A stretch of DNA of 64,000 nt from Alphaproteobacteria bacterium (lineage in GTDB: Bacteria > Pseudomonadota > Alphaproteobacteria > JAJTHO01 > CANGXP01), in contig CANGXP010000002.1 of NCBI GenBank assembly GCA_947457935.1, forward strand, positions 47,701 to 111,700, read 5' to 3'. Position numbers and translations under genes: made by a program. The notes below the pieces were generated by a model. The model ran no database searches and was not told where the DNA came from. It saw only the letters and a list, made by a program, of their open reading frames with translations. Below, piece after piece: positions 1 to 63,920 of the stretch. The number at the start of each line of letters is the position of its first letter. Position 1 is the first letter of the stretch.

Positions 1-264
1 GCACAAAAAACGGGTAAATCTCCTGAAGAGGCAATTTACCAAGGCTGTTTGCTGCGCTTCCGCCCGATTATGATGACCACCATGGCAGCTATTTTCGGCG
101 TGCTCCCCATTGCGGTAGGGCACGGCGCAGGGGCAGAATTACGCCAACCATTGGGGCTTGTGGTGGTGGGCGGGTTGCTTACCTCGCAACTCCTCACGCT
201 GTATATTACGCCTGTGGTTTATTTGTATTTGGAGCGATTGCAGAGTCGCTTTAGGCTCTGTTGA
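1..264 (+). CDS. Partial gene, 3-prime end only: C-terminus of an RND-family (AcrB-like) efflux transporter
   Basis: Translation ...[59 protein letters not shown]... resembles the last transmembrane helices of HAE1/RND pumps. The ORF runs from the window edge to a stop at 262-264. Confidence 0.55.
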
Positions 265-398
265 GATTTTAAGTATTTTGAGGCGAAAATGGCTGTTTGC
301 CGAGCATTGGAGCGCAAGTGTACTTTTGGGTACATGCGCACCGAAGCGCAGGAAAATCAGACATTTGCAGACCAAAAGACGACAAATATCAATAGGGT

Positions 399-10151: not shown

Positions 10152-10802
10152 ATGAAAACACCCCCTCAAACCATCGCTCAAATTCTGCTTGATATTGGCG
10201 CAGTGCTGCTTCGCCCTGAACAACCGTTCACGCTTACATCGGGCAAAAAAAGCCCTGTGTATGTGGATTGCCGCAAGCTCATTTCTTTCCCCAAAGAACG
10301 CCGCATCGTCATGCAAGCCATGGCGGAGGCGGTAAAACTCTCCCCCACTTTCAACACCCTAAAAGCCGTTGCGGGGGGAGAGACAGCAGGCATTCCTTAT
10401 GCCGCATGGCTCGCGGAACTGCTTGATTTGCCGATGCTTTATGTGCGCAAAAAACCCAAAGGTTTTGGGCGTAACGCGCAAATTGAAGGCAGTTTTGCAG
10501 AAGGTGATAGGGTTCTGCTCGTGGAAGACCTCGCCACCGATGGCGGCAGCAAAGTAGTGTTCGTGAATGCCTTACGAGAGGCAGGTGCAGTCGTGGATGA
10601 TTGCATCGTTGTGTTTTACTATGACATTTTCGACTATCAAAAATCCCCGCTTGCCTCGTTGAATATTGCGCTTCACGGGTTGGCAACATGGGCAGATATT
10701 CTCACCCTTGCCGAACAACAAGCCTTGCTTAACCCTGCGCAACTCAGCAGTGTTAAGCGGTTTTTGCAAAACCCCGATGCATGGCAACAGGCAATCGCAT
10801 GA
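10152..10802 (+). CDS. pyrE: Orotate phosphoribosyltransferase
   Basis: PRPP-binding motif VLLVEDLATDGGS and the typical N-terminus MKTPPQTIAQILLDIGAVLLRPEQPFTLTSGKKSPVYVDCR. The start is set at the internal Met. Confidence 0.85.
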   Translation: MKTPPQTIAQILLDIGAVLLRPEQPFTLTSGKKSPVYVDCRKLISFPKERRIVMQAMAEAVKLSPTFNTLKAVAGGETAGIPYAAWLAELLDLPMLYVRKKPKGFGRNAQIEGSFAEGDRVLLVEDLATDGGSKVVFVNALREAGAVVDDCIVVFYYDIFDYQKSPLASLNIALHGLATWADILTLAEQQALLNPAQLSSVKRFLQNPDAWQQAIA

Positions 10803-12499
10803 AACAACTCCTCATTCTGCTATTGTACTTTCTTATCACCGCAAATGCACACGCCCAATCACAACCCCTGCCCCCCAAACAAGAAATCATCATCGGCACA
10901 ACAGAAACCTTAAACACGACGCATCCCCTGCTTGCCACAACCACCGCAGAAAAACTCCTTCTCGCGCTCATCCATCGCCCCCTCACAGCACTGAATAAAA
11001 AAATGCAGCCCATGTGTTTGGTGTGCGATAAACTCCCTACCCTAGAGAATGGCTTAGTAAAACCCGCCCCCACAGCCGAAAATGGCAACCTGATAAGCGT
11101 CACGGTGCGCTTGCCTGAGAATGCCAGATGGGGAGACAGCACGCCGCTTACCAGTAAAGATGCCTATTTTACTTGGCAAACAGCGAAAACGCTTATCAAC
11201 AGCGGCGTTACAATGCCCTTTTATCAACAGGTGAGTGATATTCAGATTATCGATGATAAGAAATTTATTATTTTGCTGAATAACGCTGCCTACGCACAAT
11301 ATTTCTTGCATGATTTTTATATTCTGTCGCAGCATGTTGAAAATGCAATTACAAACACCAAAACGCCCTATCTTGAAGCAACACGCTATAAAACAACCCC
11401 CTTTGACGTGGGCTTATTTGCAGGGGCATATCGCCTCACCGCGTTTAATGAAACGGAAGCCATTGTTGTGCCCAATACAGCATGGTGGGGCACGCAGAAA
11501 CCATTTCTACAGAGAATCACTATAAAGGTTTTCCCCCACGCAGAAGCCTTGCAAGAGACCTTACTAAAACAAGAGATTGACGTTGTTTTGCCCCCTGCAG
11601 GGTTAAGTTTTGACCAAGCATATGATACCTTAAAGACAAGTCTTAACACCAAAGAATTTGCAGTAAACCTCACCCCTTCAACACAATTAGAGCATCTTGT
11701 TGTCAATTTGCAAAACCCCCTTTTACAAGATGTGCGCGTGCGGCAGGCCTTATTACAAAACATCAACCGCGAAAAATTTAATGACCTTGTGTTTCAAAAT
11801 AAGCGATTTCTTGCCGACTCTTTCATGCCCCCCCAGCATCCCTTTGCCAGCGCAACGACAACAGAGCTAGAGAATGCCGCTAGCTTATTAGACGCATCAG
11901 GTTTTAAAAAGGGCGCAGATGGCATTCTTATCAATGAGAAACAACAACGCCTCTCCTTTGCCTTTGCAACCGTGAAAGATGATCCCGCTTTGACTACTCT
12001 ACAACAACTCATTGCAAATGCGTGGCGGCAAATTGGCGTGGAAACCACGCTGGAAAGCTACCCCCTAAGAGATTTAGAACAGCGCATTCTCCCACAAAAA
12101 CTTTTTACAGGCGTTGCCCTGATACGCTCCACATTGCCTGATACACAGCCACCAATACCCCTATTTTCCAGCACTGCCATCCCCAATGCTGCGAATCAAT
12201 ATCAGGGGCAAAACTATAGCGGTTGGCAAAATGAAAAAGTGGATAGCATCCTCGCTGCTCTTGCAACGTCAACAGATACAGCGGCAGCACAACAACGCTG
12301 GCAAGCCCTCAACGCCGTATACTTAGCAGAATTGCCCACCTTGCCGCTCTATTTCACCCCTGCAATAACCGTGTTGCCTAAGGATTTACAAGGCGTTCCG
12401 CTCTCCACAGGACATACCCCGCAAACATTCAATGCAGAGCAGTGGTTTTTCACCCCCCCTGTTGTGGTGCAGCCAAAGAAAATACGGGAGATTTTTTAG
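10799..12499 (+). CDS. Periplasmic substrate-binding protein of the peptide/nickel ABC transporter family (SBP family 5, OppA/DppA-like). No permease or ATPase genes are adjacent
   Basis: Signal peptide MKQLLILLLYFLITANAHA, about 560 aa, overall family-5 SBP-like composition. The start overlaps the pyrE stop (ATGA). Confidence 0.65.
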   Translation: MKQLLILLLYFLITANAHAQSQPLPPKQEIIIGTTETLNTTHPLLATTTAEKLLLALIHRPLTALNKKMQPMCLVCDKLPTLENGLVKPAPTAENGNLISVTVRLPENARWGDSTPLTSKDAYFTWQTAKTLINSGVTMPFYQQVSDIQIIDDKKFIILLNNAAYAQYFLHDFYILSQHVENAITNTKTPYLEATRYKTTPFDVGLFAGAYRLTAFNETEAIVVPNTAWWGTQKPFLQRITIKVFPHAEALQETLLKQEIDVVLPPAGLSFDQAYDTLKTSLNTKEFAVNLTPSTQLEHLVVNLQNPLLQDVRVRQALLQNINREKFNDLVFQNKRFLADSFMPPQHPFASATTTELENAASLLDASGFKKGADGILINEKQQRLSFAFATVKDDPALTTLQQLIANAWRQIGVETTLESYPLRDLEQRILPQKLFTGVALIRSTLPDTQPPIPLFSSTAIPNAANQYQGQNYSGWQNEKVDSILAALATSTDTAAAQQRWQALNAVYLAELPTLPLYFTPAITVLPKDLQGVPLSTGHTPQTFNAEQWFFTPPVVVQPKKIREIF

Positions 12500-12842
12500 G
12501 GGAACAACTATATAGTCGTTTCAAGAAATATTTGCCCATAGCCGAGAACAACTGCACCTGAACGAAATGTACACTTCCGTACATGAGCGAGGGTAAAGGC
12601 AGTTCGCAGGCATGGGCAGGTATTTATGGGAATGACTATAGTTGTTGCTAAATCATACCAACCCAAGAAAATTTCTGATATTTAGGCGAGCGAATTAGCG
12701 AGGATGCAAAACAGCAACGCTGTTTTGCACCGCAAGCCAATGATCCTTGCCAAACACAAGCCCAAAGGGCGCAGCGGAAAGTTTAGGCGCATTGGAAAAT
12801 GTGGCGCAGCCGAATAGCAGGAATTTAATGGGCTTGGTATTA
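12498..12842 (+). repeat. Interspersed mosaic repeat, copy A: modules 1, 2 and 3 between the SBP gene and the hbd 3-prime end
   Basis: Module 1 TAGGGGAACAACTATATAGTCGTTTCAAG...CCCATAGCCGAGAAC. Module 2 GTACATGAGCGAGGGTAAAGGCAGTTCGCAGGC...GGAATGACTATAGTTGTTGC. Module 3 CAAACACAAGCCCAAAGGGCG...GTGGCGCAGCCGAATAGCAGGAATTTAATGGGCTTGGTATTA. The element begins on the SBP stop codon (TAG) and ends on the hbd stop codon. Confidence 0.7.
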
Positions 12843-13712
12843 CTTCATCGGCACGGGCTTCTCGCCAGAATAATCATAAAACCCTTTGCCTGTTTTACGA
12901 CCATACCAACCTGCTTCCACATATTTCACTAATAGGGGACAAGGGCGATATTTGCTGTCTGCGAGACCGTCATGCAGAACGTGCATAATAGCAAGGCAGG
13001 TGTCTAACCCAATGAAATCCGCCAATTCAAACGGGCCCATTGGGTGATTCGCCCCTAATTTCATCGCCGTATCGATGGAGACAACAGACCCCACCCCTTC
13101 ATGCAACGTATATACCGCCTCGTTAATCATGGGGAGCAAGATGCGGTTCACAATAAACGCAGGGAAATCTTCGGAAACAGCAATGCTTTTGCCAAGTTTT
13201 TCCGCCAACAATTTAACATGTCCGAATGTCTCCGCATCGGTTGCAATGCCTTTAATCAGTTCCACCAGCTTCATCACAGGCACAGGGTTCATGAAGTGCA
13301 TCCCCATGAACTTGTGCGGGCGGTCTGTTTTTGCCGCTAACCGCGTGATAGAGATAGACGAGGTGTTGGTGGCGATAATCGCGTCTTTATTGAGGTTCGG
13401 CACCAGTTTCTTGAAAATCTCATTTTTAACATTTTCGTTCTCGGTGGCGGCTTCAATCACGAAATCGCACTCAATGAAGGATTCATAGCCTGTGGTGGTG
13501 CGAATGCGCCCCAAAGCGTTTTTCTTGTCTTCTTCAGACAAAGTGCCTTTTGCTACTTGGCGGTCTAAGTTTTTGCTGATATTCGCAACGCCTTTTTGCA
13601 AGGCTTCTTCGCTAATATCAACCAACGTTACGTTGTATCCCGCAACAGCGGCAACATGCGCGATTCCGCTGCCCATTTGTCCTGCGCCAATAACGCCAAA
13701 ATTGTTGTTCAT
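12840..13712 (-). CDS. hbd: 3-hydroxyacyl-CoA / 3-hydroxybutyryl-CoA dehydrogenase
   Basis: N-terminal Rossmann motif [15 protein letters not shown] and 3-hydroxyacyl-CoA dehydrogenase NAD-binding and C-terminal domains. 290 aa. Confidence 0.85.
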
Positions 13713-17070: not shown

Positions 17071-18428
17071 TACGAAAATTTTTCATTTTGGCAGGAGTTT
17101 TATTGATGGCGCACGGATTTAATGCAGCGGCGGGAACGCCCGCAACAACGGGGGTTTTCAACCCGCAGATTTTCACCCTTGAGAATGGGATGACGGTGGC
17201 GTTGATTGAAAATCATCGGGTGTCTGCTGTGGTGCATATGGTGTGGTATAAGGCAGGGGCGATTGATGAAAAGCCCTCAAAGTCAGGGGTGGCGCACTTT
17301 CTGGAACACTTGATGTTTAAAGGCACGAAAACCATTGCGGAGGGCGAGTTTTCTAAGCGGGTCGCAAAAGTGGGGGGCGAGGACAACGCGTTTACGAGTT
17401 GGGACTACACCGCCTATTTCCAAAAGGTTGCTACCAAAGATCTTCCTGAAATGATGACCATGGAAGCAGACAGAATGCAAAATCTGTTGTTGTCGGAACA
17501 CGCGGTGGAAACAGAAAATAAGGTGATTGTGGAAGAGCGTCGCTCGGTGATTGATAACAAGCCGACGCGTCAGTTTGCCGAACAACTGCAAGCCGCCACC
17601 TTTCTGCATCATCCCTATAAAACGCCCATTATTGGCTGGTATTCGGAGATGTCTTCTTTGAGCCGCGAGGATGTGTTTGATTTTTATAACACGCATTATG
17701 CGCCGAACAATGCGGTGTTGGTGATAGCGGGGGATATAACCTTGCCTGCGCTGAAAGAACTAGCGGCGAAAACTTATGGCAAAGTGCCGTCTCGTCCCGT
17801 TGCGAAAAGCCCTGTGATGAAAGAGCCGCCACAGCTTGCGGCACGAACGCTTGAAATGCGCTTACCCAACGTGCAAATGCCGTTATGGCGGCGGCAATAT
17901 GTCGTGCCCAGCTATGCAACGGTGGGCGAGGATAAAGGGGTTGTGGATGCGTTAGAAGTGTTTGCCCAGATTTTAGGCGGTGGGGAATCTAGCAGATTAT
18001 ATGAAAAGTTGGTTTTAAAGAAGCAAATCGCCACCAATGTTAGTGTGTATTACGAAGCGGCAAAGCGCGGTGACAGCACGTTGGTGATTGATGTAGTACC
18101 TGTTGATGATAGTACAGCGGGACTCGCCGCTGTGACCAGCGCGGTGGAAGCCGAGATTGCAGCACTACGCGTTAAGCCTGTGCTGCCTGAGGAATTACAA
18201 CGCACAGTGCGCTCTATGCAGGCAGAGGCGGTCTATGCCCGTGATAGCCTGATGCACCCTGCAACCGTGGTGGGCGAAACGTTAGCGTTGGGACTACCCA
18301 TAAGCTATATTGAAGAATGGCCAACACGGATTGGCGGTGTGACAGTAGAGCGAGTGAAGGCAGCGGCGGCGTTGTTGGATGTAAAAGCCTCTGCTACGGG
18401 GTATTTGTTACCTGCGAAGAAAAAATGA
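17067..18428 (+). CDS. Periplasmic M16-family zinc metallopeptidase, catalytic subunit (pitrilysin-like)
   Basis: Signal peptide and an inverted zincin motif HFLEHLMFKGT (HxxEH). 453 aa. Confidence 0.8.
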   Translation: MIRKFFILAGVLLMAHGFNAAAGTPATTGVFNPQIFTLENGMTVALIENHRVSAVVHMVWYKAGAIDEKPSKSGVAHFLEHLMFKGTKTIAEGEFSKRVAKVGGEDNAFTSWDYTAYFQKVATKDLPEMMTMEADRMQNLLLSEHAVETENKVIVEERRSVIDNKPTRQFAEQLQAATFLHHPYKTPIIGWYSEMSSLSREDVFDFYNTHYAPNNAVLVIAGDITLPALKELAAKTYGKVPSRPVAKSPVMKEPPQLAARTLEMRLPNVQMPLWRRQYVVPSYATVGEDKGVVDALEVFAQILGGGESSRLYEKLVLKKQIATNVSVYYEAAKRGDSTLVIDVVPVDDSTAGLAAVTSAVEAEIAALRVKPVLPEELQRTVRSMQAEAVYARDSLMHPATVVGETLALGLPISYIEEWPTRIGGVTVERVKAAAALLDVKASATGYLLPAKKK

Positions 18429-18460
18429 TGGTTTTTATGTCAGGACACGTTTCTGGAAAT

Positions 18461-18601
18461 ACCCCTCACCCCAACCCTCTCCCACAAGGGGAGAGGGAGT
18501 TTTCTTTGTGTTATATTCTTTGTACACATCTTGTAAAAATTGTTGCAAGCAGTATGCAGATGCTCCCTCTCCCCTTGTGGGAGAGGGTTGGGGTGAGGGG
18601 T
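18461..18601. repeat. Perfect 39-bp inverted repeat (arms 18461-18499 and 18563-18601, 63-bp spacer). MITE/REP-like element between the two M16 peptidase genes
   Basis: Left arm ACCCCTCACCCCAACCCTCTCCCACAAGGGGAGAGGGAG. Right arm CTCCCTCTCCCCTTGTGGGAGAGGGTTGGGGTGAGGGGT, an exact reverse complement. Each arm also contains its own hairpin, CCCTCTCCC-ACAAG-GGGAGAGGG. Confidence 0.8.
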
Positions 18602-19897
18602 AAAATATCTCTCTTCCTCCTCCTATTTACTCTATTCACTCCCCAAGAAAGCAAGGCTATGGTCGCGATTCAAGACATCACAACGCCCTCAGGCATTACA
18701 GCATGGTTGATAGAAGACCATGCCGTGCCGTTGGTGACGATCAATTTTATGGTTAAAGGCGGTGCGGCGGCTGATGGGGCAACAAAAGCAGGGTTGACCA
18801 CCGTTGCCACGCAAATTTTGCTGGAAGGCGCGGGGCAATATGACTCTCTCGCTTTCAGCAAACAGCTTGATGAATATGCGGTGCGCCTGAGTTTCAACAC
18901 AGGGCGGGATTATTTCAGCGGCACGCTGCAAACCCTCACCGAGAATTTGCCAAAAGCCATTGAGCTTGCTTCTTTAGCTTTAACACAACCGCGCCTTGAT
19001 AAAACCTCGTTTGCCCGTGTGAAAGCGCAACAGCTTTCAAGTTTGCAAGCCGCCAATCAAAACCCTGCCGAACAAGCCAAAAAGCTGTGGTGGAGAACGG
19101 CGTTTAAGGGGCATCCATACAGTGTTCCCACGGAAGGGGAAATGGCGACAGTTGAGAAACTGACGTTGAAAGACGTGCATGAATTTGCCAAAACGCGCCT
19201 TGGGCGCAACGCACTGATTATCAGTGTGGCAGGGGCGGTGAATAAAGAGCAAGCAACCGCGATGGTAGAGGGCATTTTTGGCAACCTCCCTCTGATTACC
19301 GTGCCTGCCCCTGTTGCGGTGCAAGCGGTGCAAAAAAGCGGGAATACAGTGGTGGAGAAAGTTTCTCTCCCGCAAAGTGTAGCGATTTTCGGGCAAACTG
19401 GCGTGCGCCGCATTGACAAAGATTATTACGCCGCAACACTGCTGAATTATGTGATTGGCGGCGGGGGATTTGCTTCGCGGCTCATGCATGAAGTGCGCGA
19501 AAAGCGCGGTTTAACTTATGGGATTGGCACGGCGTTATCCGACACCGTCGCGCAACCGTTGTTTTTTGGGCAAGTTTCCAGTGCGAATGAAACCGTAACG
19601 GAGGCTCTGACGCTAACGAAAGCGATTTTGGCAGATATTGCGAAAAATGGTATCACCGCGCAAGAACTACAAGATGCAAAAGACCATGAAAATGGCTCGT
19701 TTCCATTAGATTTGGATAATACTGAGCGGCTAGCGAGCCTTGCCTCTGCCATGCAATACTATGACCTGCCGAAGGATTTTTTAGAAAAAAGAGAGTCGCT
19801 GATTTCTGCGGTGACGTTAGACCAAATTAACCACTTAGCCGCTAAGGTGTTTCACAGCGATGCATTAGTTATTGCTATTGTTGGAAACCCTAAATAA
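18554..19897 (+). CDS. M16-family peptidase homologue lacking HxxEH, likely the non-catalytic partner subunit
   Basis: M16 fold similarity but no HxxEH motif. Predicted start MQMLPLPLWERVGVRGKISLFLLLFTLFTPQESKA is signal-peptide-like. The ORF track extends upstream to 18317, through an inverted repeat and across the previous gene's end. Confidence 0.65.
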   Translation: MQMLPLPLWERVGVRGKISLFLLLFTLFTPQESKAMVAIQDITTPSGITAWLIEDHAVPLVTINFMVKGGAAADGATKAGLTTVATQILLEGAGQYDSLAFSKQLDEYAVRLSFNTGRDYFSGTLQTLTENLPKAIELASLALTQPRLDKTSFARVKAQQLSSLQAANQNPAEQAKKLWWRTAFKGHPYSVPTEGEMATVEKLTLKDVHEFAKTRLGRNALIISVAGAVNKEQATAMVEGIFGNLPLITVPAPVAVQAVQKSGNTVVEKVSLPQSVAIFGQTGVRRIDKDYYAATLLNYVIGGGGFASRLMHEVREKRGLTYGIGTALSDTVAQPLFFGQVSSANETVTEALTLTKAILADIAKNGITAQELQDAKDHENGSFPLDLDNTERLASLASAMQYYDLPKDFLEKRESLISAVTLDQINHLAAKVFHSDALVIAIVGNPK

Positions 19898-23115: not shown

Positions 23116-23294
23116 AACAATCCCAACAACACTATTACAGGACTTACGCAGTGCTCGTCTTTTCGGTAATTTTGTTGTCAGAAAATTGCTCAAAATGCTC
23201 ATTTACGTCTAGTAAACTGCGCTTTTTCCCAAATTTCTTCCTAAAAATTCCTCAAAAATTCATCACCTGCGTAAGTCCTGTAGTCATAAAAAAT

Positions 23295-23519
23295 CTAGCT
23301 TTGTAGCATGACGATCGCAATAACGAAGCAAAGAATGAGTACTAACTCGGTTGCAGCGAAGCCAATAAAGGTCATTGTTTTGAACTTTGGCTCAGCAGAA
23401 GGATTGCGACTTGTTGCATTGATGTAAGAAGAAAAGATATTCCCCAAACCAAGACCAACGCCAAGAGCGGCAAACATTGCAATACCAGCGCCAATGAATT
23501 TTGCTGCTACGGGATCCAT
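23295..23519 (-). CDS. atpE: F0F1 ATP synthase subunit c
   Basis: 74-aa proteolipid with a GxGxGxG region (GAGIAMFAALGVGLGLGNIF) and a conserved carboxylate helix. Confidence 0.85.
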   Translation of the reverse strand: MDPVAAKFIGAGIAMFAALGVGLGLGNIFSSYINATSRNPSAEPKFKTMTFIGFAATELVLILCFVIAIVMLQS

Positions 23520-30971: not shown

Positions 30972-32492
30972 TTGTCTATGCTGCACCGTCACCTTCATTC
31001 TTTTTTCGGCTTGTTTATAATAAGTGCGGTAGCAGGGGCGGTTCTGGGGTATGCACTCCCGCCCTATAATTACATCCTCGCTGGCGGTGCGTTCAGCGTT
31101 TTGCTCTATGCGATTATCAACAGCAAAAAATCATGGCATAGCTATTGTTTCGGGTGGGTGTTTGGTTTTGCGTTTTATGGACTGAGCTTATCATGGGTGG
31201 CAAACGCCCTCACTTTTGACGCACAATTTGCCTATCTCATTCCTATTTCTCAATTCGGTATTCCCGCATTTTTGGGGTTGTATAGCGGTGCGGTGGCGGC
31301 AATGGCCAAACGCTCGCGCTTTACAGGCATCTCGTTATGGTTGCTGTTTGCAGCCTTGTGGGCGGGCATGGAATATATCAAAAATATTATAGGCTTCTCG
31401 TTCCCGTGGAATATCGTGGGGTATGCGTGGACGCAAAATCTTGAAATCCTGCAATCAACGGCTCTTGTTGGCATTCACACCCTAAGCCTGTTGAGTGTGT
31501 TGTTGTGGACAAGCCCCCTCCTCCTCACCGCCAAACACGGCAGACCTGCCTTGATGGGTATCGCGGTTATTTTCTGTCTATTTTATGGGTGGGGATTAGG
31601 GCGACTACAGAATGCTAGCGATGAAACGCAGCCGTTTGTGATGCGTTTGGTGCAACCGAATGTGAGCCAGAATAATAAAATTCAAGGCAATGCAAATGAA
31701 GATGATTTTGCCCGTCTGATACGTCTTTCGGCAACCCCTACCAATCAAAAAATTTCTGCCGTCATTTGGCCTGAATCTGCAGCACCCTATGGGCTTGATC
31801 AAGATGCAAATGCACGACAACAAATCATGCAGCAACTCCCCTTGGGGGCAGATCTCATCACGGGGATTAGCCGCCTACGTATTGACACAACACAAAACAA
31901 AGAAGTGCCCGCCAACAGCCTGATGGTGGTGCACCCGAGTGGTGATATTGCAGGGTTTTACGACAAACATTTTCTCGTGCCGTTTGGAGAATATGTGCCA
32001 TTGCGCCGTTATTTAAAGATGGCAAAAGTCACCCCTGGAATTGGCGATTTTGCCCGTGGGGTTGGCGTACAAACGCTAGCGCTCTCTGATGTTCCCGCGT
32101 TTAGCCCGCTGATTTGCTACGAAGCGGTTTATTCAGGGCAAGTGGTGGATAAAAACAATCGTCCTCAATGGTTACTCACCATCAGCAATGATGCATGGTA
32201 TGGCGATTCTGCAGGCCCCTACCAACATGCCGAATTTGCCAAAGTCCGCGCCATTGAAGAAGGCTTGCCCCTTGTGCGCGTTGCCAACACCGGCATTTCT
32301 TACATTGCTGACAGTTATGGACGACAACAAGGCATCACCACCTTAGATACGGATGCGGTGGTAGATCTCCCCTTGCCAGCAGCCTTAGAGAATCCAAAGT
32401 TCTTTGCACGGCATGGGAACATGCTGTTTGGAGTAGCGTTGGGACTATGTGTTATAGCAGCGGCGGCATTGCGGCGGATAGTACGCGACTAG
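30972..32492 (+). CDS. lnt: Apolipoprotein N-acyltransferase
   Basis: 506 aa with an N-terminal polytopic domain and a C-terminal CN-hydrolase domain including the catalytic Cys context (PLICYEAVY). Confidence 0.8.
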   Translation: MSMLHRHLHSFFGLFIISAVAGAVLGYALPPYNYILAGGAFSVLLYAIINSKKSWHSYCFGWVFGFAFYGLSLSWVANALTFDAQFAYLIPISQFGIPAFLGLYSGAVAAMAKRSRFTGISLWLLFAALWAGMEYIKNIIGFSFPWNIVGYAWTQNLEILQSTALVGIHTLSLLSVLLWTSPLLLTAKHGRPALMGIAVIFCLFYGWGLGRLQNASDETQPFVMRLVQPNVSQNNKIQGNANEDDFARLIRLSATPTNQKISAVIWPESAAPYGLDQDANARQQIMQQLPLGADLITGISRLRIDTTQNKEVPANSLMVVHPSGDIAGFYDKHFLVPFGEYVPLRRYLKMAKVTPGIGDFARGVGVQTLALSDVPAFSPLICYEAVYSGQVVDKNNRPQWLLTISNDAWYGDSAGPYQHAEFAKVRAIEEGLPLVRVANTGISYIADSYGRQQGITTLDTDAVVDLPLPAALENPKFFARHGNMLFGVALGLCVIAAAALRRIVRD

Positions 32493-32640
32493 GAATATTG
32501 TTGTTGTTTCAGTTTAGAATGTTACGCAGTCGAAAACGACCGCAACCGAACGAACGTGTACATTTTAGTACATGAGTGAGGTTAAGGGAAGTTTGCAGGC
32601 GTGTAACATTCTAAAATGGAATGACTACCTACCGCGCCCG
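32490..32640 (+). repeat. Interspersed mosaic repeat, copy B: modules 1 and 2 between lnt and the purF 3-prime end
   Basis: TAGGAATATTGTTGTTGTTTCAG...CGAAAACGACCGCAACCGAACGAACGTGTACATTTTAGTACATGAGTGAGGTTAAGGGAAGTTTGCAGGC...GGAATGACTAC aligns with copy A. It begins on the lnt stop codon. Confidence 0.65.
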
Positions 32641-34110
32641 CATCAACTCCTTCAGCACGTTTTTCTTATTCTTCGGCAAGGTGGTGCTATTGTGGTCAGT
32701 GAGCGGCAAGGGATATTCCCCCGTAAAGCACGCATCGCAATATTGCGGCATCTCTTTGTTGCGCTTGGTTTCGCCGAGGGCTTGATAGAGTCCATCAAGG
32801 GAAATAAACGCCAGACTATCCACACCGATGAGTTTCGCCATTTCTGCAATAGAATGTTGCGCTGCCATCAGTTTATCGCGTGAGGGCGTGTCTACCCCAT
32901 AAAAACAGGAATGCGTTGTGGGCGGGCTGGCAATCCGCATGTGCACTTCTTTTGCACCCGCTTGCCGCACCATATCCACAATTTTTACCGAGGTTGTGCC
33001 GCGCACAATACTATCATCCACCAAAATCACTCGCTTATCTTTAATGTACGCTTTGTTGGTGTTGTGTTTCAGCTTCACGCCCAAATGGCGGATGTGGTCG
33101 GTGGGTTCAATGAACGTGCGCCCGACATAGTGATTGCGGATAATCCCTAACTCAAAGGTAATGCCTGATTGTTCGGCATAGCCCAACGCGCCTGTTACGC
33201 CTGAATCAGGCACAGGCACAATCACATCCGCATCAACATGGCTTTCCCGCGCAAGTTGCTTGCCAATATTTTTGCGTACCGCATACACGCTTTTGTCTTC
33301 AAACAGGCTATCAGGGCGGGCAAAATAAATGTACTCAAAAATGCAAAACCGCGAGGGGCTTTTATCGAACGGAAAGCTGCTATGAATACCATTTGCATCA
33401 ATGCTTACCATTTCCCCTGCGGCAACATCACGCACATATTGCGCCCCGATAATATCAAACGCACAGGTTTCAGAGGCGAGCAAATACGCATCCCCCAACT
33501 TGCCCAACACCAACGGGCGCACGCCTGCGGGGTCACGCACCCCAATTACACGGTCGCTCCCCAACACCACAAGAGAATACGCCCCTTCAACTTGGTTAAG
33601 CGCGTCAACAAGGCGTTGCTCAAGCGTTTTGCCTGCACCCAGTGCCATCAGATGAAAAATAACTTCTGTATCACTGGTAGACTGAAAAATTGCGCCGCGC
33701 TCAATCAGCACTTTTTTCAGCGTGTAGGCATTCGTCAAATTTCCATTATGGGCAATGCCCACGCCGCCAAAGGCAAACTCGGCAAACAGGGGTTGCACGT
33801 TGCGTAAAATTGTATCACCTGAGGTGGAATAGCGGACGTGCCCAATGGCAATATCACCCACTAAGCCTTGCATAACCTCGTTTGAGGCGAATGCATCGCC
33901 CACTAAACCTAAGGCACGATGCGCATGGAATTGCCCGTTATCAACTGTTACAATGCCCGCTGCTTCTTGCCCCCGATGTTGCAGGGCATGAAGTCCTAGA
34001 GCCGTGTGCGCTGCCGCTGTATGCGCCCCAAACACGCCAAATACGCCACATTCCTCACGGAGTTTGTCGTCATCAAAGGGGTTGGTGGAAACGTGACAAA
34101 AAGAAGTCAT
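32629..34110 (-). CDS. purF: Amidophosphoribosyltransferase
   Basis: N-terminal Ntn-hydrolase CGV (REECGVFGVFG) and a PRTase motif (VILVDDSIVRGTTS). 493 aa. It overlaps cvpA by 4 nt, the classic cvpA-purF operon arrangement. Confidence 0.9.
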   Translation of the reverse strand: MTSFCHVSTNPFDDDKLREECGVFGVFGAHTAAAHTALGLHALQHRGQEAAGIVTVDNGQFHAHRALGLVGDAFASNEVMQGLVGDIAIGHVRYSTSGDTILRNVQPLFAEFAFGGVGIAHNGNLTNAYTLKKVLIERGAIFQSTSDTEVIFHLMALGAGKTLEQRLVDALNQVEGAYSLVVLGSDRVIGVRDPAGVRPLVLGKLGDAYLLASETCAFDIIGAQYVRDVAAGEMVSIDANGIHSSFPFDKSPSRFCIFEYIYFARPDSLFEDKSVYAVRKNIGKQLARESHVDADVIVPVPDSGVTGALGYAEQSGITFELGIIRNHYVGRTFIEPTDHIRHLGVKLKHNTNKAYIKDKRVILVDDSIVRGTTSVKIVDMVRQAGAKEVHMRIASPPTTHSCFYGVDTPSRDKLMAAQHSIAEMAKLIGVDSLAFISLDGLYQALGETKRNKEMPQYCDACFTGEYPLPLTDHNSTTLPKNKKNVLKELMRAR

Positions 34111-36577: not shown

Positions 36578-36675
36578 TACCAAACCCATTAAATTCCTGC
36601 AATTTTGCTGCGCCACACCATCGGCTTCAGTCATTGGCGTTGAGCCAACTCCATTCAGCCTCGGCTCGCTCACAA
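36576..36675 (-). repeat. Interspersed mosaic repeat, copy D: reverse orientation, module-2 start fused to module-3 end, immediately after the serA stop
   Basis: Plus strand TAATACCAAACCCATTAAATTCCTGCAATTTTGCTGCGCC is the reverse complement of the copy-A end GCGCAGCCGAATAGCAGGAATTTAATGGGCTTGGTATTA. The far end reads GTGAGCGAG (compare ATGAGCGAG of module 2). Confidence 0.6.
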
Positions 36676-36692
36676 AAATTTCAGAAATTTTC

Positions 36693-37781
36693 TTGGGTTG
36701 GTATAAGGTACTTGGCGGCGCATTATTTGCACTATGCGTTTATGGCGCAGGGGATTCTGCATCCATCGCCGCTGATTCTTTTAAAGTGGGGGATGCAACC
36801 TATTCGGTGGTTATCCAACAGCCCCTCACGCCACTGGTGGGGCTGGGAATACACAACACTATCCCTCAAAAAATAGTGGGGTTTGACCGCAATAACAAGG
36901 TGTATAGCCTAGAGGCATTGATTGGCACGTTGGTGCTAACACCCCTTAAGGACTTTGCGCCTGTTCCCCAACCCCTCTTAAAAGATAAGGTGGAAAACAG
37001 CGCGGTGAGCTATGGCAAAACCGAAATACAGTATGCGTATTTTGCGGATACTGTGGAGGGTGCTTTCTCCCCCATCCTCGGTAAACTCCCCGTGGGCAGA
37101 ACGCTTGTTGCAACCTTAAAAAATGGTGCAGATGTACGGTTTTCACTGCCAGCAGGATATGTGTATGAAAACACTGCCCCTGTTGTGATTGATCTCAATA
37201 ATGACGGGTTAGAGGAAATTGTTGTAACCGAAACCAACACGCAAACGGGAACGTCTGTGCTGGGGTTGTATATCACCGTTGAGGGGCGATTAAAGCGAAT
37301 GGCAAACTCCCCCGCTTTGCCACAACAAGGGCACTGGGTGGATGCACTAGGGACGCTTGATTGGCAGGAAGACGGCAAGCCCTCAATTTTGGCGATTGAA
37401 GCCCCCAACATCAACGGATTCTTGCAGTTTTACGGCATGAAAAACGGCAAAATGGAGAGTGTGCGGCGGGAATATGGCTATTCTAGCAGAATCGTTGGCA
37501 CGCCCTTAGCCCCAACACTGTTGCTTGCAGATATGGACGACAACGGCACACAAGAGCTGATGATACCGCGCAACAGCATGGATGCTCTTGCTATTTTAAG
37601 TTTCACAAAAGGGCTGATGACACGCCTGTATGAAACGGATTTACCTGCCCCGATTGCCTCTGCCTTTTATATTGCCTACACTGCCCCCCCCGAAAATCCA
37701 AAAAGGGCTGTGCATAGTATTGCATTCTTTTTGCGGGATGGGCAAATTGCGCTGATAACACGCGTACAGAAAGCACAATAG
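36693..37781 (+). CDS. Secreted hypothetical protein with FG-GAP/VCBS-like repeats
   Basis: Asp-rich repeat motifs VVIDLNNDGLEEIVVTE and LLADMDDNGTQELMIP. The start is uncertain. The ORF track starts at 36546, but that N-terminal part is occupied by an interspersed repeat copy. I suggest a TTG at 36693, which gives a signal-peptide-like N-terminus GWYKVLGGALFALCVYGAG. Confidence 0.4.
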   Translation: MGWYKVLGGALFALCVYGAGDSASIAADSFKVGDATYSVVIQQPLTPLVGLGIHNTIPQKIVGFDRNNKVYSLEALIGTLVLTPLKDFAPVPQPLLKDKVENSAVSYGKTEIQYAYFADTVEGAFSPILGKLPVGRTLVATLKNGADVRFSLPAGYVYENTAPVVIDLNNDGLEEIVVTETNTQTGTSVLGLYITVEGRLKRMANSPALPQQGHWVDALGTLDWQEDGKPSILAIEAPNINGFLQFYGMKNGKMESVRREYGYSSRIVGTPLAPTLLLADMDDNGTQELMIPRNSMDALAILSFTKGLMTRLYETDLPAPIASAFYIAYTAPPENPKRAVHSIAFFLRDGQIALITRVQKAQ

Positions 37782-46616: not shown

Positions 46617-48008
46617 TCAGGCAACTTTTTGGGTTTCAATAGTGACGATTTCCCCCGCCACACTATAGGGCATTCCTGAAATAATTTTCACATCCGCAAT
46701 CGTACCAATGAGCCGTTGAGGAGCCATGATATGCACAGACTGCATGAACGGGCTTCTGCCGATAATCTGCCCTGCTTTGCGCCCTTCTTTCTCAAACAAA
46801 ACGGGCATTGTTTGCCCTTCTGTTTGTTTGTTAAAGGCTGCTTGTTGTTCGCCTAACAACCCTTGCAGAATTTGCAAGCGTTCTTGCTTTACAGGCAAGG
46901 GAATAGCATCCGCTTCCATAGCAGCAGGGGTGCCTGCCCGTGCACTATACATAAACGAATAGGCTTGTGCGTAGTTGACTTCCCGCACTAAATCGAGGGT
47001 ATCGGCAAAGTCTTGTTCGGTTTCGCGGGGGTGTCCCACGATAAAATCAGAAGAAAAAGCAATGTCAGGACGCGCAGCCCGTAGGCTAGCAATGACCTCT
47101 TTATAGGCTTCGCGGCTATGTTTGCGGTTCATCATCTCCAACATCCGATTAGAACCACTTTGCACAGGTAAATGTAAAAAAGGCATTAACGCAGGAATTT
47201 CTTTGTGTGCCTTGATGAGGTCGCTGTCCACATCACGCGGATGGGAAGTCGTATAGCGCAAGCGCACAAGCCCGTCTAGTTCTGCCATCGCGAATAACAA
47301 CCGTCCTAAACCCCATTCAGAGCCATCTGCTGCCATGCCATGATAGGCATTCACGTTTTGCCCTAATAACGTAATTTCTTTTGCCCCTGCGGCAATAAGC
47401 TGTTTTGCCTCTTTCAGCACCTCTGCCACAGGACGCGAAAATTCCGCCCCGCGTGTATACGGCACAACACAAAACGAACAAAACTTGTCACAGCCTTCTT
47501 GGATGGTGAGAAACGCGGCACCCGCTTGCACGGCGTTGCTATCACTGCCGCTTTCAGGCAGAAAATCAAATTTTGACTCAAGAGGAAAATCGGTAGCCAG
47601 AATGCCGCGCCCGCCGCTGTTTTTCTCCCGTGCGCGTTGTGCTTGCGCCACTAACTCAGGCAATTTGTGATACATTTGAGGGCCTACCACAATATCAACA
47701 TAAGGCGCACGGCGGAGCATTTCCGCGCCCTCTGCCTGTGCAACACACCCTGCAACCCCAATCACAAGGTCCTGCCCGTGCACGGCTTTTTCTGCCCGCA
47801 ACTCCCGCAATCTGCCCAATTCAGAATACACCTTCTCCGCTGCTTTTTCCCGAACATGGCAGGTGTTGAGGATTGCCATATCGGCATCATCCACCGTTTC
47901 GGTTGCCTCAAAGCCAAGGGGGCGCAAGGTATCTGCCATGCGCGATGAATCATACACGTTCATCTGGCAGCCATATGTTTTAATATAGAGTTTTTTCATG
48001 CCATCCAC
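46617..48008 (-). CDS. miaB: tRNA-i6A37 methylthiotransferase (radical SAM)
   Basis: N-terminal MTTase cysteines (YGCQMN...NTCHVRE), radical-SAM CxxxCxxC (CDKFCSFCVVP) and a C-terminal TRAM domain. Confidence 0.9.
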   Translation of the reverse strand: MDGMKKLYIKTYGCQMNVYDSSRMADTLRPLGFEATETVDDADMAILNTCHVREKAAEKVYSELGRLRELRAEKAVHGQDLVIGVAGCVAQAEGAEMLRRAPYVDIVVGPQMYHKLPELVAQAQRAREKNSGGRGILATDFPLESKFDFLPESGSDSNAVQAGAAFLTIQEGCDKFCSFCVVPYTRGAEFSRPVAEVLKEAKQLIAAGAKEITLLGQNVNAYHGMAADGSEWGLGRLLFAMAELDGLVRLRYTTSHPRDVDSDLIKAHKEIPALMPFLHLPVQSGSNRMLEMMNRKHSREAYKEVIASLRAARPDIAFSSDFIVGHPRETEQDFADTLDLVREVNYAQAYSFMYSARAGTPAAMEADAIPLPVKQERLQILQGLLGEQQAAFNKQTEGQTMPVLFEKEGRKAGQIIGRSPFMQSVHIMAPQRLIGTIADVKIISGMPYSVAGEIVTIETQKVA

Positions 48009-48060
48009 TTAAAATCCTGCATATTGTCTTTGCTGCGCCTCGCCGTACTCAGGTAGTTTT
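48009..48060 (-). repeat. Interspersed mosaic repeat, copy E (3-prime-end module only)
   Basis: The reverse complement GGCGAGGCGCAGCAAAGACAATATGCAGGATTTTAAGTGGATGG matches the conserved GTGGCGCAGC...AATAGCAGGAATTTAATGGGYTTGG end-module of copies A and D. It abuts the miaB start codon. Confidence 0.45.
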
Positions 48061-48104
48061 CTACATTCTGTGCGGCTCGGCTGGCGCGCCAAATCTTCAG
48101 AATT

Positions 48105-48920
48105 TTACGAAGGATGGCATACTTGTAAAGTAACATTCTTTTCCCGTCTGCCCGTATAACTCTCTTTCAACCCTTGCGCTACTTTATTTTCGCAATGGTG
48201 GCTCAGTTCCTTACGGTTTTTAAAATCATCTTTCGCCACAACGGGGTGATAGGTCACGCGCACGGTCACCTTACCAAGCCCGAGGAATGCGAGCAGGTGC
48301 GTGCCCAACTCCATATCGCCATACCACGTTACAAACGGGCGCAATACACGGTTAATAGGCATCCCATCCAGTTTGGTATAGGCAACCGTAACGGGCTGAA
48401 TCATCAGTCCTTCAGGGCTTTCTTCTGACGTTGCCACACCAAACAAGGTGCTTTTGAAGGGCAGCACGCGATTTCCATCTGTGCTTGTGCCTTCTGGAAA
48501 CAATACAAGATTTTGCTTGGCTTTCAGGGCGGTGGCAATTTCTGCTTGGTGTTGTTTAGCAAGGCGGGGATTGCGCTCAATAAAAATGGTGCGATGGCAA
48601 CGCGCGAGGAAACCAATAATAGGCCAGCCATCAATTTCTTTTTTCGCCACAAACGAGGCATGGAGTTCTGCCCCCAGCACCACAATATCTAAATATGAAC
48701 TATGGTTGGCAACAAACAACGTGGGGATATGCGGCGAAATCTTACCTTCCCGCTCAATTTTTAGCCCTAAAATTTTTGCCGTTACTTTATGCCAGCGTTG
48801 CGGCATGAAATCGCGTCGCGGAAGCTTGAAAAGTCCCGCAACGCTGAATAACGCAAGCATAAAGAGCGTCCAGCATAAAATTGCCGCCAAACGCCAAACG
48901 ATGTTAAGCGGCTTAATCAT
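48105..48920 (-). CDS. olsA: Lysophospholipid acyltransferase family protein (PlsC-like). Position and size fit OlsA of ornithine-lipid synthesis
   Basis: PlsC H(x)4D motif region (FVANHSSYLDIVVL) and FPEGT motif (LVLFPEGTST). 271 aa. It overlaps the upstream GNAT-like gene by 4 nt. Confidence 0.55.
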   Translation of the reverse strand: MIKPLNIVWRLAAILCWTLFMLALFSVAGLFKLPRRDFMPQRWHKVTAKILGLKIEREGKISPHIPTLFVANHSSYLDIVVLGAELHASFVAKKEIDGWPIIGFLARCHRTIFIERNPRLAKQHQAEIATALKAKQNLVLFPEGTSTDGNRVLPFKSTLFGVATSEESPEGLMIQPVTVAYTKLDGMPINRVLRPFVTWYGDMELGTHLLAFLGLGKVTVRVTYHPVVAKDDFKNRKELSHHCENKVAQGLKESYTGRREKNVTLQVCHPS

Positions 48921-51493: not shown

Positions 51494-51760
51494 CTTATCA
51501 AGATGGTTAAGAGCAGCGCATACTAAGGTCTGTGAGAAACAGCGTCAACCCCTAAGAACCTATCCACAATCACATGATCCCTTGCTGCAAATGACGTTTT
51601 TCTGCGATACGATGCTCATGTATGAAAAATACACTGCGCTTCGTTTCTCGAAAACCATCCATTTTCGCTACGGGCTGATGCGATTTTGAACAGGTTCTAA
51701 CCTTTTGTTAATGATTTCCCTCTAAGCTATCCCCTAATCAACAATAAACACCATAGACAA

Positions 51761-55953: not shown

Positions 55954-56207
55954 TTAGGGGCATTAACTATATAGTTGTTTCAATTTAGAATTACCCATAG
56001 CCGAAAGCTGATGCTGCCAAAAAGCACTGCTTTTTGCAACAGCAGCCAATGAGCTTTACTAAACACAAGCCCAAAAGGGCGAAGTGATTAGTTTAGGCGG
56101 AATTGAAGCAGCGGCACGAAGTTTACCTTTTTGTAAATGAGAGACGCTAAGGGAAGTTTGCAGGCAGGGGTAATTTTAAAGTGGGACGACTATAGCAGCC
56201 ACAATCT
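55954..56207 (+). repeat. Interspersed mosaic repeat, copy C: modules 1, 3-like and 2, between the class IV aminotransferase gene and the asd start
   Basis: TTAGGGGCATTAACTATATAGTTGTTTCAATTTAGAATTACCCATAGCCGAAAGC (module 1). CTAAACACAAGCCCAAAAGGGCGAAGTGATTAGTTTAGGCGG (module 3-like). GTAAATGAGAGACGCTAAGGGAAGTTTGCAGGCAGGGG...GGGACGACTATAGCAGCC (module 2). Confidence 0.65.
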
Positions 56208-57828: not shown

Positions 57829-59538
57829 TTCGTGAAGTTTCGCCCTGTCGCTGCCGTCTCTCTTGTAAGTTTAGCTGTTCTGTTGTTAGGCGCGTGCGAA
57901 AAAAAAGCCGCAACCCCTGAAAAAACAAGCGCGGTAGAGCAAGACTATGACGCAACACTTGTGCAAACACCAAACGCAACAGGGAACTACCTTTCTGCTC
58001 GCTCTGCCTTTGCCACACGCAATTTTGCAAAAGCGTTGGAATACACCAATGCAAGCCTGAGCCAATTTCCCACAAACTCTGCTTTGCTTCAGCAAGCATT
58101 TTTCCTGAATATTATTGCGGAACGCTGGCAAGCGGCAGATACTATTGCTCAACGAATCCTCAGCATCACCCCTGATGACTATTTTGCCAATCTGGTTACC
58201 ATAACACAAAGCCTTGCCAATAAAGACTATGTCCTTGCAGAAAAACAACTCAATAGCCTGCCACAGGGCGGCGTGCAACAGGTGTGGTTGTCTTTGTATC
58301 AAGCATGGGTATCTCTGGGGCAAGGGGCGGGGCAAAGTGCCTCTTACGTTTTGCAAGCTGTTGACCAAGTGCCAGAATTGCGCCCGCTGGTGTTGCTGCA
58401 CAACGGGCTAATTAATCAGGTGGCAGGGAACACAGAAAACGCGCTCAACTATTTTGCACAAGCCAGACAAGCGATTGAGGTGCTGCCGTTGCGCTTTGTG
58501 GTGCTCTATGGCAATTTACTCAACACGCAAAAACAAACCGCTAATCTCGATGCCATGCTGAAATCAGCCGAGCAAGATAGTGACACAGTGGCAGTCTCAC
58601 AACAAATTTTACAACGGCTACAAACCAATAATACGGAAGGCTTGGGGGTTATCACTTCCGCGAAAGAAGGCTTTGGGCAAGCGCTGTATGATGTGGGAAC
58701 ATTTTTAAACAGTGACCGCTCGCGGGATGCCGCCCTCATCCACACCGCGCTTTCTTTGCGCCTGATGCCTGATAATGATTTTGCGAAACTGTTGTTGGGG
58801 CGATTATTAGAGGAAACAAATTTTCACGATAAGGCTCTTGGGTTTTTAAGCGAAATCAAGCAATCGTCTGTATTTTGGTCGGTTGCACAAATTCGCCGCG
58901 CTCAAGTGCTTGCTGCTGATAAAAAAGAGGCAGAAGCCATCACTATTTTGCAAAAAGCACTGGCTGAAAACAGCACATCGTTTGAAATCAAAGAACAGCT
59001 TGCGGATTTATTGCGCTCTCAAGAAAAATTTGTAGAAGCTATCCCGCTGTATACCGAAATTCTTGAGCAGATTAAAGACGAGAAGCAAAATTTGTGGACG
59101 CTATACTATGCGCGTGGCACGTCATATGAGCGTACGAATCAATGGGACAAAGCGGAAGCAGACCTGAAAAAAGCGTTGGAACTCGAACCAAACCAGCCGT
59201 TTGTGTTGAATTATTTGGGGTATTCGTGGGTTGATAAGGGCATCAACCTTGAAGACGCTCTTGTTATGCTGCATAAAGCCGTCGAAATTGAGCCAGACAA
59301 TGGCTATATCGTCGATAGCCTTGGGTGGGCGTATTATAAAATGGAAAAATATGAAGAGGCGGTGAAATATCTAGAAGAAGCCGTTTCGTTGAATCCCTCA
59401 GACCCGCTTATCAATGACCATTTAGGTGATGCATACCTTAAAGCAGGGCGCGTTAATGAAGCAAAGTTTCAATGGAAACGGGCTTTATCGTTTGATCCTG
59501 AAGAGAAGGATAAAAAACGCATTGAGGAGAAGCTATAG
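57829..59538 (+). CDS. TPR-repeat lipoprotein
   Basis: Proposed GTG start gives KFRPVAAVSLVSLAVLLLGAC, a lipobox followed by Cys. Multiple TPR-like repeats occur in the C-terminal half (YYARGTSYERTNQWDKAEADLKKALELEPN..., AYYKMEKYEEAVKYLEEAVSLNP...). The ORF track starts at 57613, inside the divergent UDG gene, which is implausible. Confidence 0.55.
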   Translation, partial: FVKFRPVAAVSLVSLAVLLLGACEKKAATPEKTSAVEQDYDATLVQTPNATGNYLSARSAFATRNFAKALEYTNASLSQFPTNSALLQQAFFLNIIAERWQAADTIAQRILSITPDDYFANLVTITQSLANKDYVLAEKQLNSLPQGGVQQVWLSLYQAWVSLGQGAGQSASYVLQAVDQVPELRPLVLLHNGLINQVAGNTENALNYFAQARQAIEVLPLRFVVLYGNLLNTQKQTANLDAMLKSAEQDSDTVAVSQQILQRLQTNNTEGLGVITSAKEGFGQALYDVGTFLNSDRSRDAALIHTALSLRLMPDNDFAKLLLGRLLEETNFHDKALGFLSEIKQSSVFWSVAQIRRAQVLAADKKEAEAITILQKALAENSTSFEIKEQLADLLRSQEKFVEAIPLYTEILEQIKDEKQNLWTLYYARGTSYERTNQWDKAEADLKKALELEPNQPFVLNYLGYSWVDKGINLEDALVMLHKAVEIEPDNGYIVDSLGWAYYKMEKYEEAVKYLEEAVSLNPSDPLINDHLGDAYLKAGRVNEAKFQWKRALSFDPEEKDKKRIEEKL

Positions 59539-59647
59539 CAGTCCTCATTTAGATTGATACATCGTCAGCTTTCGGCTTATGTATGTTAATACACTGCGCC
59601 TCAGCTTCCTTGTAGCAATCTAAAGCAGTCCCGCTAAATTAAAAAGT

Positions 59648-63843: not shown

Positions 63844-63920
63844 TAACGGGCTAGATTTTTAAGGATTATCAAGGTATACTAAAGCTCTGTATATTAAAAA
63901 GACAGGACTTACACAGGTGA

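Follow-up and report, generated by a model that had tools for sequence, protein, structure and literature searches.

Why do several genes within 64 kb of an uncultured alphaproteobacterial genome end exactly where a dispersed repeat begins? The window, as we call the whole 64,000-nucleotide stretch of contig CANGXP010000002.1 analyzed here, belongs to a metagenome scaffold of 120 kb (ENA ERZ28613074; G+C content, 47.7%). An earlier note on its sequence had described five repeat loci, A to E, with a short open reading frame in common, and had judged the pattern more typical of a micro-protein or a structured RNA than of a decaying MITE (miniature inverted-repeat transposable element). That opposition is a false one, as long paired hairpins are classic for MITEs (PMC3184786, PMC10969869). 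Our analysis indicates, with a probability of about 0.85, that the window carries related families of small, noncoding, nonautonomous MITE-like elements, each forming one long imperfect hairpin. We call the families X, Y, and Z and regard them as new families of a known kind, the bacterial MITEs; their host belongs to an uncultured genus of freshwater Alphaproteobacteria.

Element families and their insertion sites

Self-comparison of the five loci by blastn gave significant similarity, with E values in the range of 1e-7 to 1e-14 (A-C, 2e-14; A-B, 3e-12; A-D, 3e-9 and 2e-7), and repeat-family detection returned the same relations (families D1, D3, D6, D11, I4, and I5), which bears out that the loci are related. 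Moreover, every unit matched its own reverse complement in blastn and is thus a long imperfect palindrome. What had looked like modules in different order are instead distinct elements, adjacent or nested. X and Y are hairpins of ~125 nucleotides (nt) with three copies each in the window, while Z, of ~100 nt and with two hairpins, was found only nested, once in X and once in Y. Locus A consists of X followed by a Y that contains Z, and locus C of an X that contains Z. Loci D and E are copies of Y and longer than first described, so the MSE start read in copy D (GTGAGCGAG) is not homologous to that of X (ATGAGCGAG). The expectation of at least five copies was surpassed: when six X sequences were used to construct a covariance model (R1), the window yielded three diverged relatives of X, namely, X'1, X'2, and X''. 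Altogether, 11 element copies occupy ~1.5 kb of the window (Table 1), with sizes of 101 to 142 nt, or 184 to 221 nt with a nested Z. The terminal inverted repeats of X and X'2 are the ends given in Table 1 for X_A and X'2, and those of Y are TACCAACCC/GGGTTGGTA.

The relatives available for comparison are congeners. JBILKT01, a Lake Mendota alphaproteobacterial metagenome-assembled genome (MAG), represents a sister species of the window organism, with DNA identities of 86% in typA and 91% in hbd. Outside the genus, the closest SerA and TypA proteins are ~72 to 73% identical, and the SerA relatives (72% identity) are too remote for insertion-site comparison. At five orthologous congener sites, namely, those at typA, xerD, hbd, asd, and upstream of flhA, the elements are absent.

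Two of these sites show the insertion exactly. In the sister species (L057, L055, and L056), a class-IV aminotransferase gene stops 11 nt before the start of asd, at the empty site GTGGCTGCTATAGTTAATTCCCC (junction, ...GTGGCTGCTATAGTTAATTCCCCTATATGAAGGATGAGACAATG). The window has identical flanks with X_C and its nested Z inserted and TA on both sides; read in the orientation of X, the empty sequence AACTA-TA-GCAGCC becomes AACTA-(TA)-TAGTTGTTTC...GGGACGACTA-(TA)-GCAGCC. X_C therein has symmetric termini, TAGTYG.../...CRACTA, and a 2-bp TA duplication. Its insertion changed the C terminus of the aminotransferase from ...AAIVNSPI to ...AAIVVPL and added 225 bases between that gene and asd. Upstream of flhA, the sister species (L055/L056) reads AAAAGG-TTA-GAGCTTGACG, and the window reads AAAAGG-(TTA)-X'2-(TTA)-GGGGTTGACG, a 3-bp duplication; here the element lies 5 nt upstream of the −35 box of a promoter-like TTGACG/TAGTAT pair. 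The suggestion of a mobile element is therefore upheld by two exact filled/empty pairs with target-site duplications and by presence or absence between sister species.

The remaining copies have similar flanks. X lies between TA and TA in copies A and C and in the L042 copy, and between CA and TA in the L006 copy. The Y copies Y_D and L051 are flanked by TAA/TAA, duplications that were read from the flanks, without an empty site. Taken together, the elements show the features of bacterial MITEs: a size below ~400 bp, no coding capacity, terminal inverted repeats (Z excepted), dispersed copies, and presence or absence between relatives, with a target-site duplication relative to an empty site for X_C (TA) and X'2 (TTA).

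The 5' flanks of X_A (TTAGGGG-AACAACTATA, 12496-12513) and X_C (TTAGGGGCATTAACTATA, 55954-55971) are alike. The X_C flank is native, being present in the sister-species empty site (L057), and excision of X_A restores the palindrome AACAACTATAGTTGTT. These flanks suggest that targets resembling AACTA^TAG, or palindromic ones, may be preferred. A general rule by which X is preceded by a mimic of its own 3' end was considered and discarded, as it is true only for copy A (12/15).

Table 1. Element copies in the window, with their ends, predicted RNA folds (kcal/mol), locations, and supporting matches
Element	Positions	Strand	Ends, structure, and flanks	Fold	Location and support
X_A	12514..12638	+	Hairpin TAGTCGTTTC...GGAATGACTA; TA (12512-12513) and TA (12639-12640) on either side	-63.6, z -7.8; opposite strand, -46.0	13 nt beyond the SBP_bac_5 gene (10781-12499), which stops with TAG; nhmmer E 6e-42; model R1, 146 bits
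Y_A	12656..12839	+	TACCAACCC...GGGCTTGGTA; flanks TCA and TTA; Z nested apically	-68.8, z -4.8	I4/I5 repeats common to copy D; nhmmer E 2e-35
Z in Y_A	12695..12801	+	Two-hairpin module, no terminal inverted repeats		76% identity to 56010-56107, E 2e-14 (blastn)
X_B	32501..32627	+	Degenerate 5' terminus	-53.0, z -6.1; antisense, -34.8	Between lnt (30972-32492, +) and purF (32629-34110, -), both assigned by Pfam; nhmmer E 1e-39; model R1, 140 bits
X_C	55972..56192	+	Z nested at 56007-56107; TA (55970-55971) and TA (56193-56194) on either side	-85.6, z -5.7	In the final codons of the class-IV aminotransferase gene (56176-57003, -) and upstream of asd (54924-55937, -)
Z in X_C	56007..56107	+	Apical part of X_C; replaces 6 nt of the X consensus		Alignments
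Y_D	36578..36703	-	Perfect 3-bp duplication, TAA (36575-36577) and TAA (36704-36706); TTA/TTA in Y orientation	Minus strand, -54.3; plus strand, -38.3	nhmmer E 4e-37; flank analysis
Y_E	47999..48119	-	Older, diverged; terminal stem ATGCCATCC/GGATGGCAT, both arms changed relative to ATACCAACC/GGTTGGTAT; degenerate flanks	-45.2, z -4.7	Between an acyltransferase gene (48105-48920, -) and miaB (start near 47999, -), both by Pfam; D vs E, blastn E 4e-4; nhmmer E 4e-32
X'2	51556..51697	-	Diverged X relative GAACCTGTTC...GGATAGGTTC; TTA (51698-51700) and TTA (51553-51555)	-56.5, z -7.9; other strand, -40.7	Model R1, 33.9 bits, E 4e-5
X'1	about 263..390	+	Decayed X'2 relative		Between convergent acrB-like and murJ genes; weak evidence: I7 repeat common with 51635-51668; nhmmer E 0.009; model R1, 14.7 bits, E 1.4
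X''	59536..59636	-	Short X relative, 101 nt, TAGCGGGAC...GGACTGCTA	-43.0, z -6.0; antisense, -29.3	Model R1, 25.2 bits, E 0.005 over 251 kb and 1.6e-4 in a local search

Outside the window, a scan of a genome collection with a 23-nt X pattern returned two genuine copies, both in JBILKT01 (L004/L042, 471-616, and L006, 1834-1982), and two chance matches; a metagenome scan and two viral-contig scans returned chance matches only. No extra copies of X, Y, or Z were found in the window flanks (L009 and L010) or in a 22-kb contig of the same organism (L038), and there was no match in plasmids, rhizobial megaplasmids included, or in phages. The sister species has a fourth Y copy (L051, 7027-7150). 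In place of an interior like those of Y_D and Y_E, it contains a perfect, G+C-rich hairpin of 23 bp (GGGCCCCTGCCTCCCGCTGCGCA/...), so Y termini can carry different apical cargo.

Gene ends, synteny breaks, and a likely mechanism

The earlier remark that repeat boundaries coincide with stop codons is correct. The hbd stop (TAA on the minus strand, TTA at 12840-12842) directly follows Y_A; the serA TAA (36575-36577) adjoins Y_D; the purF TAG (32629-32631) lies 2 nt from the end of X_B; and the TAG of the SBP gene (12497-12499) is found 13 nt before the TA that flanks X_A. This coincidence arises because Y targets TAA/TTA and X termini start with TAG. At serA (TTC TAA^TACC) and hbd (AAG TAA^TACC), the duplicated Y target is itself the stop codon; the sister species reads AAG TAG GGATT at hbd, with homology ending at window position 12841. 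On either strand, an X terminus opens with TAG, and several genes therefore stop within an element or run into one. The hexapeptide-repeat gene on L042 ends TTA TAG^TCATTCC at X, higA on L006 ends likewise, and the window TPR gene (57832-59538) stops at the terminal TAG of X'' (59536-59538, plus strand), while acs on L051 runs nine codons into its Y copy. Insertions at gene 3' ends are rendered harmless by termini that carry stop codons, and this compact genome tolerates insertions only in its short spacers or at the very 3' ends of genes.

Wherever related genomes were comparable, homology ends at an element terminus. Downstream of typA, X is present only in JBILKT01; homology is lost there with the very first base of the element, immediately past the terminator of typA, and three other relatives have different DNA at this place. 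The X upstream of xerD is missing from a lineage whose XerD is 83% identical. At hbd, the end of homology to the sister species at 12841 is the Y_A terminus. Two contigs of the same species, L042 and L043, have X in common and differ past its 3' end, and the 3' arm of this xerD-linked X is chimeric, as expected from recombination between copies. In addition, short Logan/ENA contigs repeatedly end inside the repeats.

The typA-anmK interval itself differs in four genomes (L006, 1834-4247, versus L038, L039, and L041), which hold higBA with a methyltransferase and a glycosyltransferase gene, a 330-amino-acid (aa) gene, or a 366-aa gene with GT8. In JBILKT01, the X copy marks the exact start of this variable island.

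These observations would fit the following course of events. A transposase encoded elsewhere in the genome would recognize the inverted termini and insert an element at TA (X) or at TTA/TAA (Y and X'), duplicating the target. In a compact genome, insertions within genes would be lost, and those in short spacers, or at or a few codons before stops, would survive. The termini would then supply stop codons, TAG from the X end and TAA from the duplicated Y target, so that some genes would end within an element. Elements would also enter or adjoin each other, as Z in X and Y and X beside Y at locus A, producing the mosaic look. Finally, dispersed copies would become substrates for recombination, giving synteny breaks exactly at element ends. 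A DDE enzyme of the IS630/Tc1 or IS5 (IS427/IS1031) type would fit TA-centered duplications of 2 to 3 bp, and duplications of this length suggest such a transposase here.

The one insertion sequence seen in ~250 kb was considered as a mobilizer and rejected, as its termini (GGGCAGTTCTAAAAACC) are unrelated to X and Y. It occupies positions 1-1286 of L044 (ENA ERZ27272047, sister species), encodes a DDE_Tnp_1/DUF772 transposase between terminal inverted repeats GGGCAGTTCTAAAAACC, and is inserted in the hexapeptide-repeat gene beside the xerD-linked X.

Several points weigh against this explanation. In the ~250 kb available from this genus, no transposase whose termini match those of the elements was found. 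The palindromic TA/CTATAG context allows the 2-bp duplication of X to be parsed also as insertion without duplication. Z has neither inverted termini nor a recognizable duplication, so that the mechanism above does not account for its insertion, and the family descriptions stand on six distinct sequences for X, four for Y, and two for Z. Furthermore, covariation in X spans the whole hairpin and is strand specific, for which recognition of double-stranded termini offers no explanation.

Hairpin folds, the short reading frame, and competing explanations

The predicted folds are far more stable than shuffled controls, with one long hairpin per element (Table 1). For X, RNAalifold predicted 45 pairs from five sequences, and at 14 of these pairs both partners have changed in a compensatory way. 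In this structure, 97.7% of cells are paired, compared to 31 to 43% when the partner is slid by one to three columns, and none of 500 shuffles reached the observed values; the two Z copies differ by four compensatory pairs. The conserved secondary structure suspected earlier is thus strongly supported. The X fold is also strand specific, as shown by 22 G·U cells (11 columns) versus a single A·C cell. The sense strand is ~10 to 18 kcal/mol more stable than its complement in eight of nine X-type copies, including X'2 and X''. Such asymmetry also occurs in Y_D, not in Y_A, Y_E, or Z. Invariant columns make up 51% of unpaired and 53% of paired positions in X, so unpaired columns are no more conserved, and an apical GUGUAY...RUACAU hairpin and the internal-loop nucleotides are kept across diverged X subfamilies.

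The short frame proposed for the repeat, MSE.KGS.QA...NDY, coincides with the 3' arm of this hairpin, and its ATG lies in the apical stem (GUGUAC/GUACAUG). That the frame encodes a conserved, repeat-borne micro-protein is hardly credible, and we reject it. In its favor, the frame is open from an ATG in A, B, and C, as first claimed, and in L006, several residues are common to the copies, and differences at third codon positions (12) outnumber those at the first (7) and second (5). The ATG is nonetheless replaced by ATA in two of six X copies, those of L042/L043 (the xerD copy of JBILKT01), and in X'', and no Shine-Dalgarno motif was seen by eye. The frame also has no conserved stop and enters unrelated flanks, giving 22 aa in A, 29 aa in L006, 103 aa in B, and an open-ended product in C. 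Of 19 residues, 8 are not the same in A and B, and by our count radical changes are among them; in X'2 the same frame specifies an unrelated peptide, and the peptide is not kept in the diverged relatives. What had been taken for synonymous variation carries no coding signal: the variable columns by codon position, 7/5/12 of 19 each, are not significantly uneven (rough chi-square of ~3.25, 2 degrees of freedom), and 17 of these 24 columns are base paired and change together with their 5'-arm partner. The 5' arm and the reverse strand carry equally "conserved" open frames. Thus, the ATG frame is conserved because the 3' arm of the hairpin is conserved.

Selection on the folded sense strand would be expected if the elements were primarily functional structured RNAs, such as mRNA stabilizers, RNase III sites, or small RNAs, with spread being secondary. 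The very stable folds (z scores of -6 to -8), the G·U asymmetry in X, X'2, X'', and Y_D, the conserved apical hairpin and loop nucleotides, and the precedents of Correia elements with RNase III and ERIC elements with RNase E (PMC10969869, PMC2649163) all speak for this view. Their orientation, however, is mixed and follows no significant rule relative to neighboring genes: four copies are sense to the upstream gene (A, B, L006, and X'1), three are antisense in tandem gene pairs (C, L042, and X''), and one lies upstream of a promoter (X'2). Consensus scans flagged no promoter or terminator at a common position in three X copies, unpaired columns are no better conserved than paired ones, and Rfam 15 gave no match across the window at the gathering threshold and none at an E value of ≤1 for 12450-12900. 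The absence of copies from orthologous sister-species sites also means that no particular gene depends on them. Hence, an RNA role is not established, given the mixed orientation and the lack of a conserved promoter or terminator, and as the primary nature of the elements we hold it to be very improbable. Mobilization of X, and perhaps Y, as single-stranded DNA by an HUH/Y1 transposase, a RAYT or IS200/IS605 relative, with the hairpin as a REPIN-like substrate, is somewhat less improbable, though still unlikely. A single-stranded substrate would explain pairing that is strand specific and tolerates G·T, along with compensatory changes along the entire stem. The G·U excess, the energy gap between strands, the 5'-flank homology between copies A and C, and the reading of the X "duplication" as none all agree with it. 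On the other side stand perfect 3-bp direct duplications at X'2, where the empty site confirms it, and at two Y copies. Y1 transposases are not known to duplicate their target. Nor do the arms look by eye like REP palindromes, and no Y1_Tnp or RAYT gene is present among the called genes of ~250 kb.

With MITE-like insertion elements kept as the preferred reading, the full-length covariation still calls for a cause. It could reflect selection on transcripts, as in Correia (RNase III) and ERIC (RNase E) elements, a single-stranded intermediate, as proposed for REPINs (PMC3116915), or template-switch "correction" of quasi-palindromes. We view as possible, if rather doubtful, that the X superfamily (X, X', and X'') is maintained as a strand-specific single-stranded fold, of RNA or DNA, beyond its double-stranded transposase-binding ends. 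This proposal draws on a 45-bp stem that covaries throughout, a G·U:A·C ratio of ~20:1 on one strand, and the persistence of the apical GUGUAY-loop-RUACAU hairpin; the G·U excess falls on the same strand even in X subfamilies too diverged for alignment. If true, such a fold would represent either a new hairpin-dependent mobilization with 2- to 3-bp duplications or a domesticated RNA role. We also infer possible effects on mRNA, e.g., processing by RNase III or RNase E or stabilization, by analogy to Correia and ERIC elements.

Known families, other repeats, and significance

Longer variants of ERIC/IRU elements of Enterobacteriaceae arise by an extra block at internal sites, resembling Z within X and Y. 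ERIC/IRU elements are also imperfect palindromes, of ~127 bp, in transcribed spacers, and orientation-dependent effects on RNA have been reported for them (PMC10969869). There is no sequence similarity, however (the locus A composite has no match in 5,426 Escherichia coli genomes), and the window elements show duplications and empty sites. More broadly, MITEs form long stem-loops, insert into each other, and extend gene 3' ends (PMC10969869, PMC3184786), and both nesting and 3'-end extension have precedents among MITEs, REPINs, and further repeats (PMC10969869, PMC3184786, PMC3116915).

The closest analogue of X is the Correia element (CREE/nemis) of Neisseria, of which X is not a member. Correia elements measure 104 to 157 bp, form a single long hairpin of inverted arms, occupy spacers and gene ends, and are present or absent between close relatives. 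They end in TATAG and target TA, occasionally CA (PMC2649163), as X does with the CA/TA flanks of its L006 copy. Against the CREE pattern TATAG[CT]GGATTAA, X plus its flanking TA reads TATAGTCGTTTCAA. The similarity is restricted to TATAG, however, and the pattern TATAG[CT]GGATTAA(CAAAAA/ATTTAAA)... is not found at both ends. The host, moreover, is a freshwater alphaproteobacterium, no integration host factor (IHF) site or promoter is demonstrated in X, X covaries over its full length with G·U asymmetry, and its relatives use a 3-bp TTA duplication.

REPINs, mobilized by RAYT, are likewise long hairpins with frequent compensatory changes and form clusters by insertion into or beside copies (PMC3116915), and strand-specific folding of X would fit their single-stranded intermediate; the arms, the 2- to 3-bp duplications, and the lack of a RAYT gene among the called genes of ~250 kb set X and Y apart. 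RIME and Sm-repeats of rhizobia and RPE of Rickettsia are alphaproteobacterial palindromic repeats, intergenic or in frame, with a mosaic look that gives them an apparent likeness to the window elements. RPEs and other repeats enter coding regions, and repeats that extend gene 3' ends have been described (PMC3184786). In contrast to in-frame insertions inside proteins, the window elements mostly replace the last few codons.

Other repeats occur in the window. At 18460-18602, a spacer of 63 nt separates the arms of a perfect 40-nt inverted repeat (TACCCCTCACCCCAACCCTCTCCCACAAGGGGAGAGGGAG), and each arm is itself a small, REPIN-like palindrome. The repeat lies within an M16 peptidase gene (18425-19897), in its 5' part; the product has 490 aa here and 412 aa in the sister species (L052). 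The spacer appears in the opposite orientation in a second sample (L002), on a contig that stops at this point; the region may be an invertible segment or an assembly artifact. A parS-like palindrome (TGTTTCACGTGAAACA) occurs twice, at ~45315 and ~62355, within the 68-nt inverted repeat I2 (45299-45366/62317-62384; 87% complementary), which suggests that the window may lie near a replication origin or partition region; GC skew gave no usable replication-strand information. A different family is represented by a 120-nt inverted repeat (85% complementary) at 23183-23302, between ATP synthase genes, and at 63881-64000, where the window ends, upstream of a gene for polysaccharide synthesis.

In summary, our data add MITE families not described before, from a genus of uncultured freshwater alphaproteobacteria, and remove the repeat-borne micro-protein as a tempting false lead. 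The strand-specific maintenance of the whole hairpin poses a modest open question about element upkeep. The coincidence of repeat ends with stop codons receives a mechanistic reason, namely, duplication of TA or TAA together with termini that start with TAG. The elements fragment metagenome assemblies, which is relevant to MAG quality. They also remodel gene ends, with three genes stopping inside an element or running into one and with X_C having parted two genes separated by only 11 nt in the sister species, and they mark every synteny break seen between the sister species.

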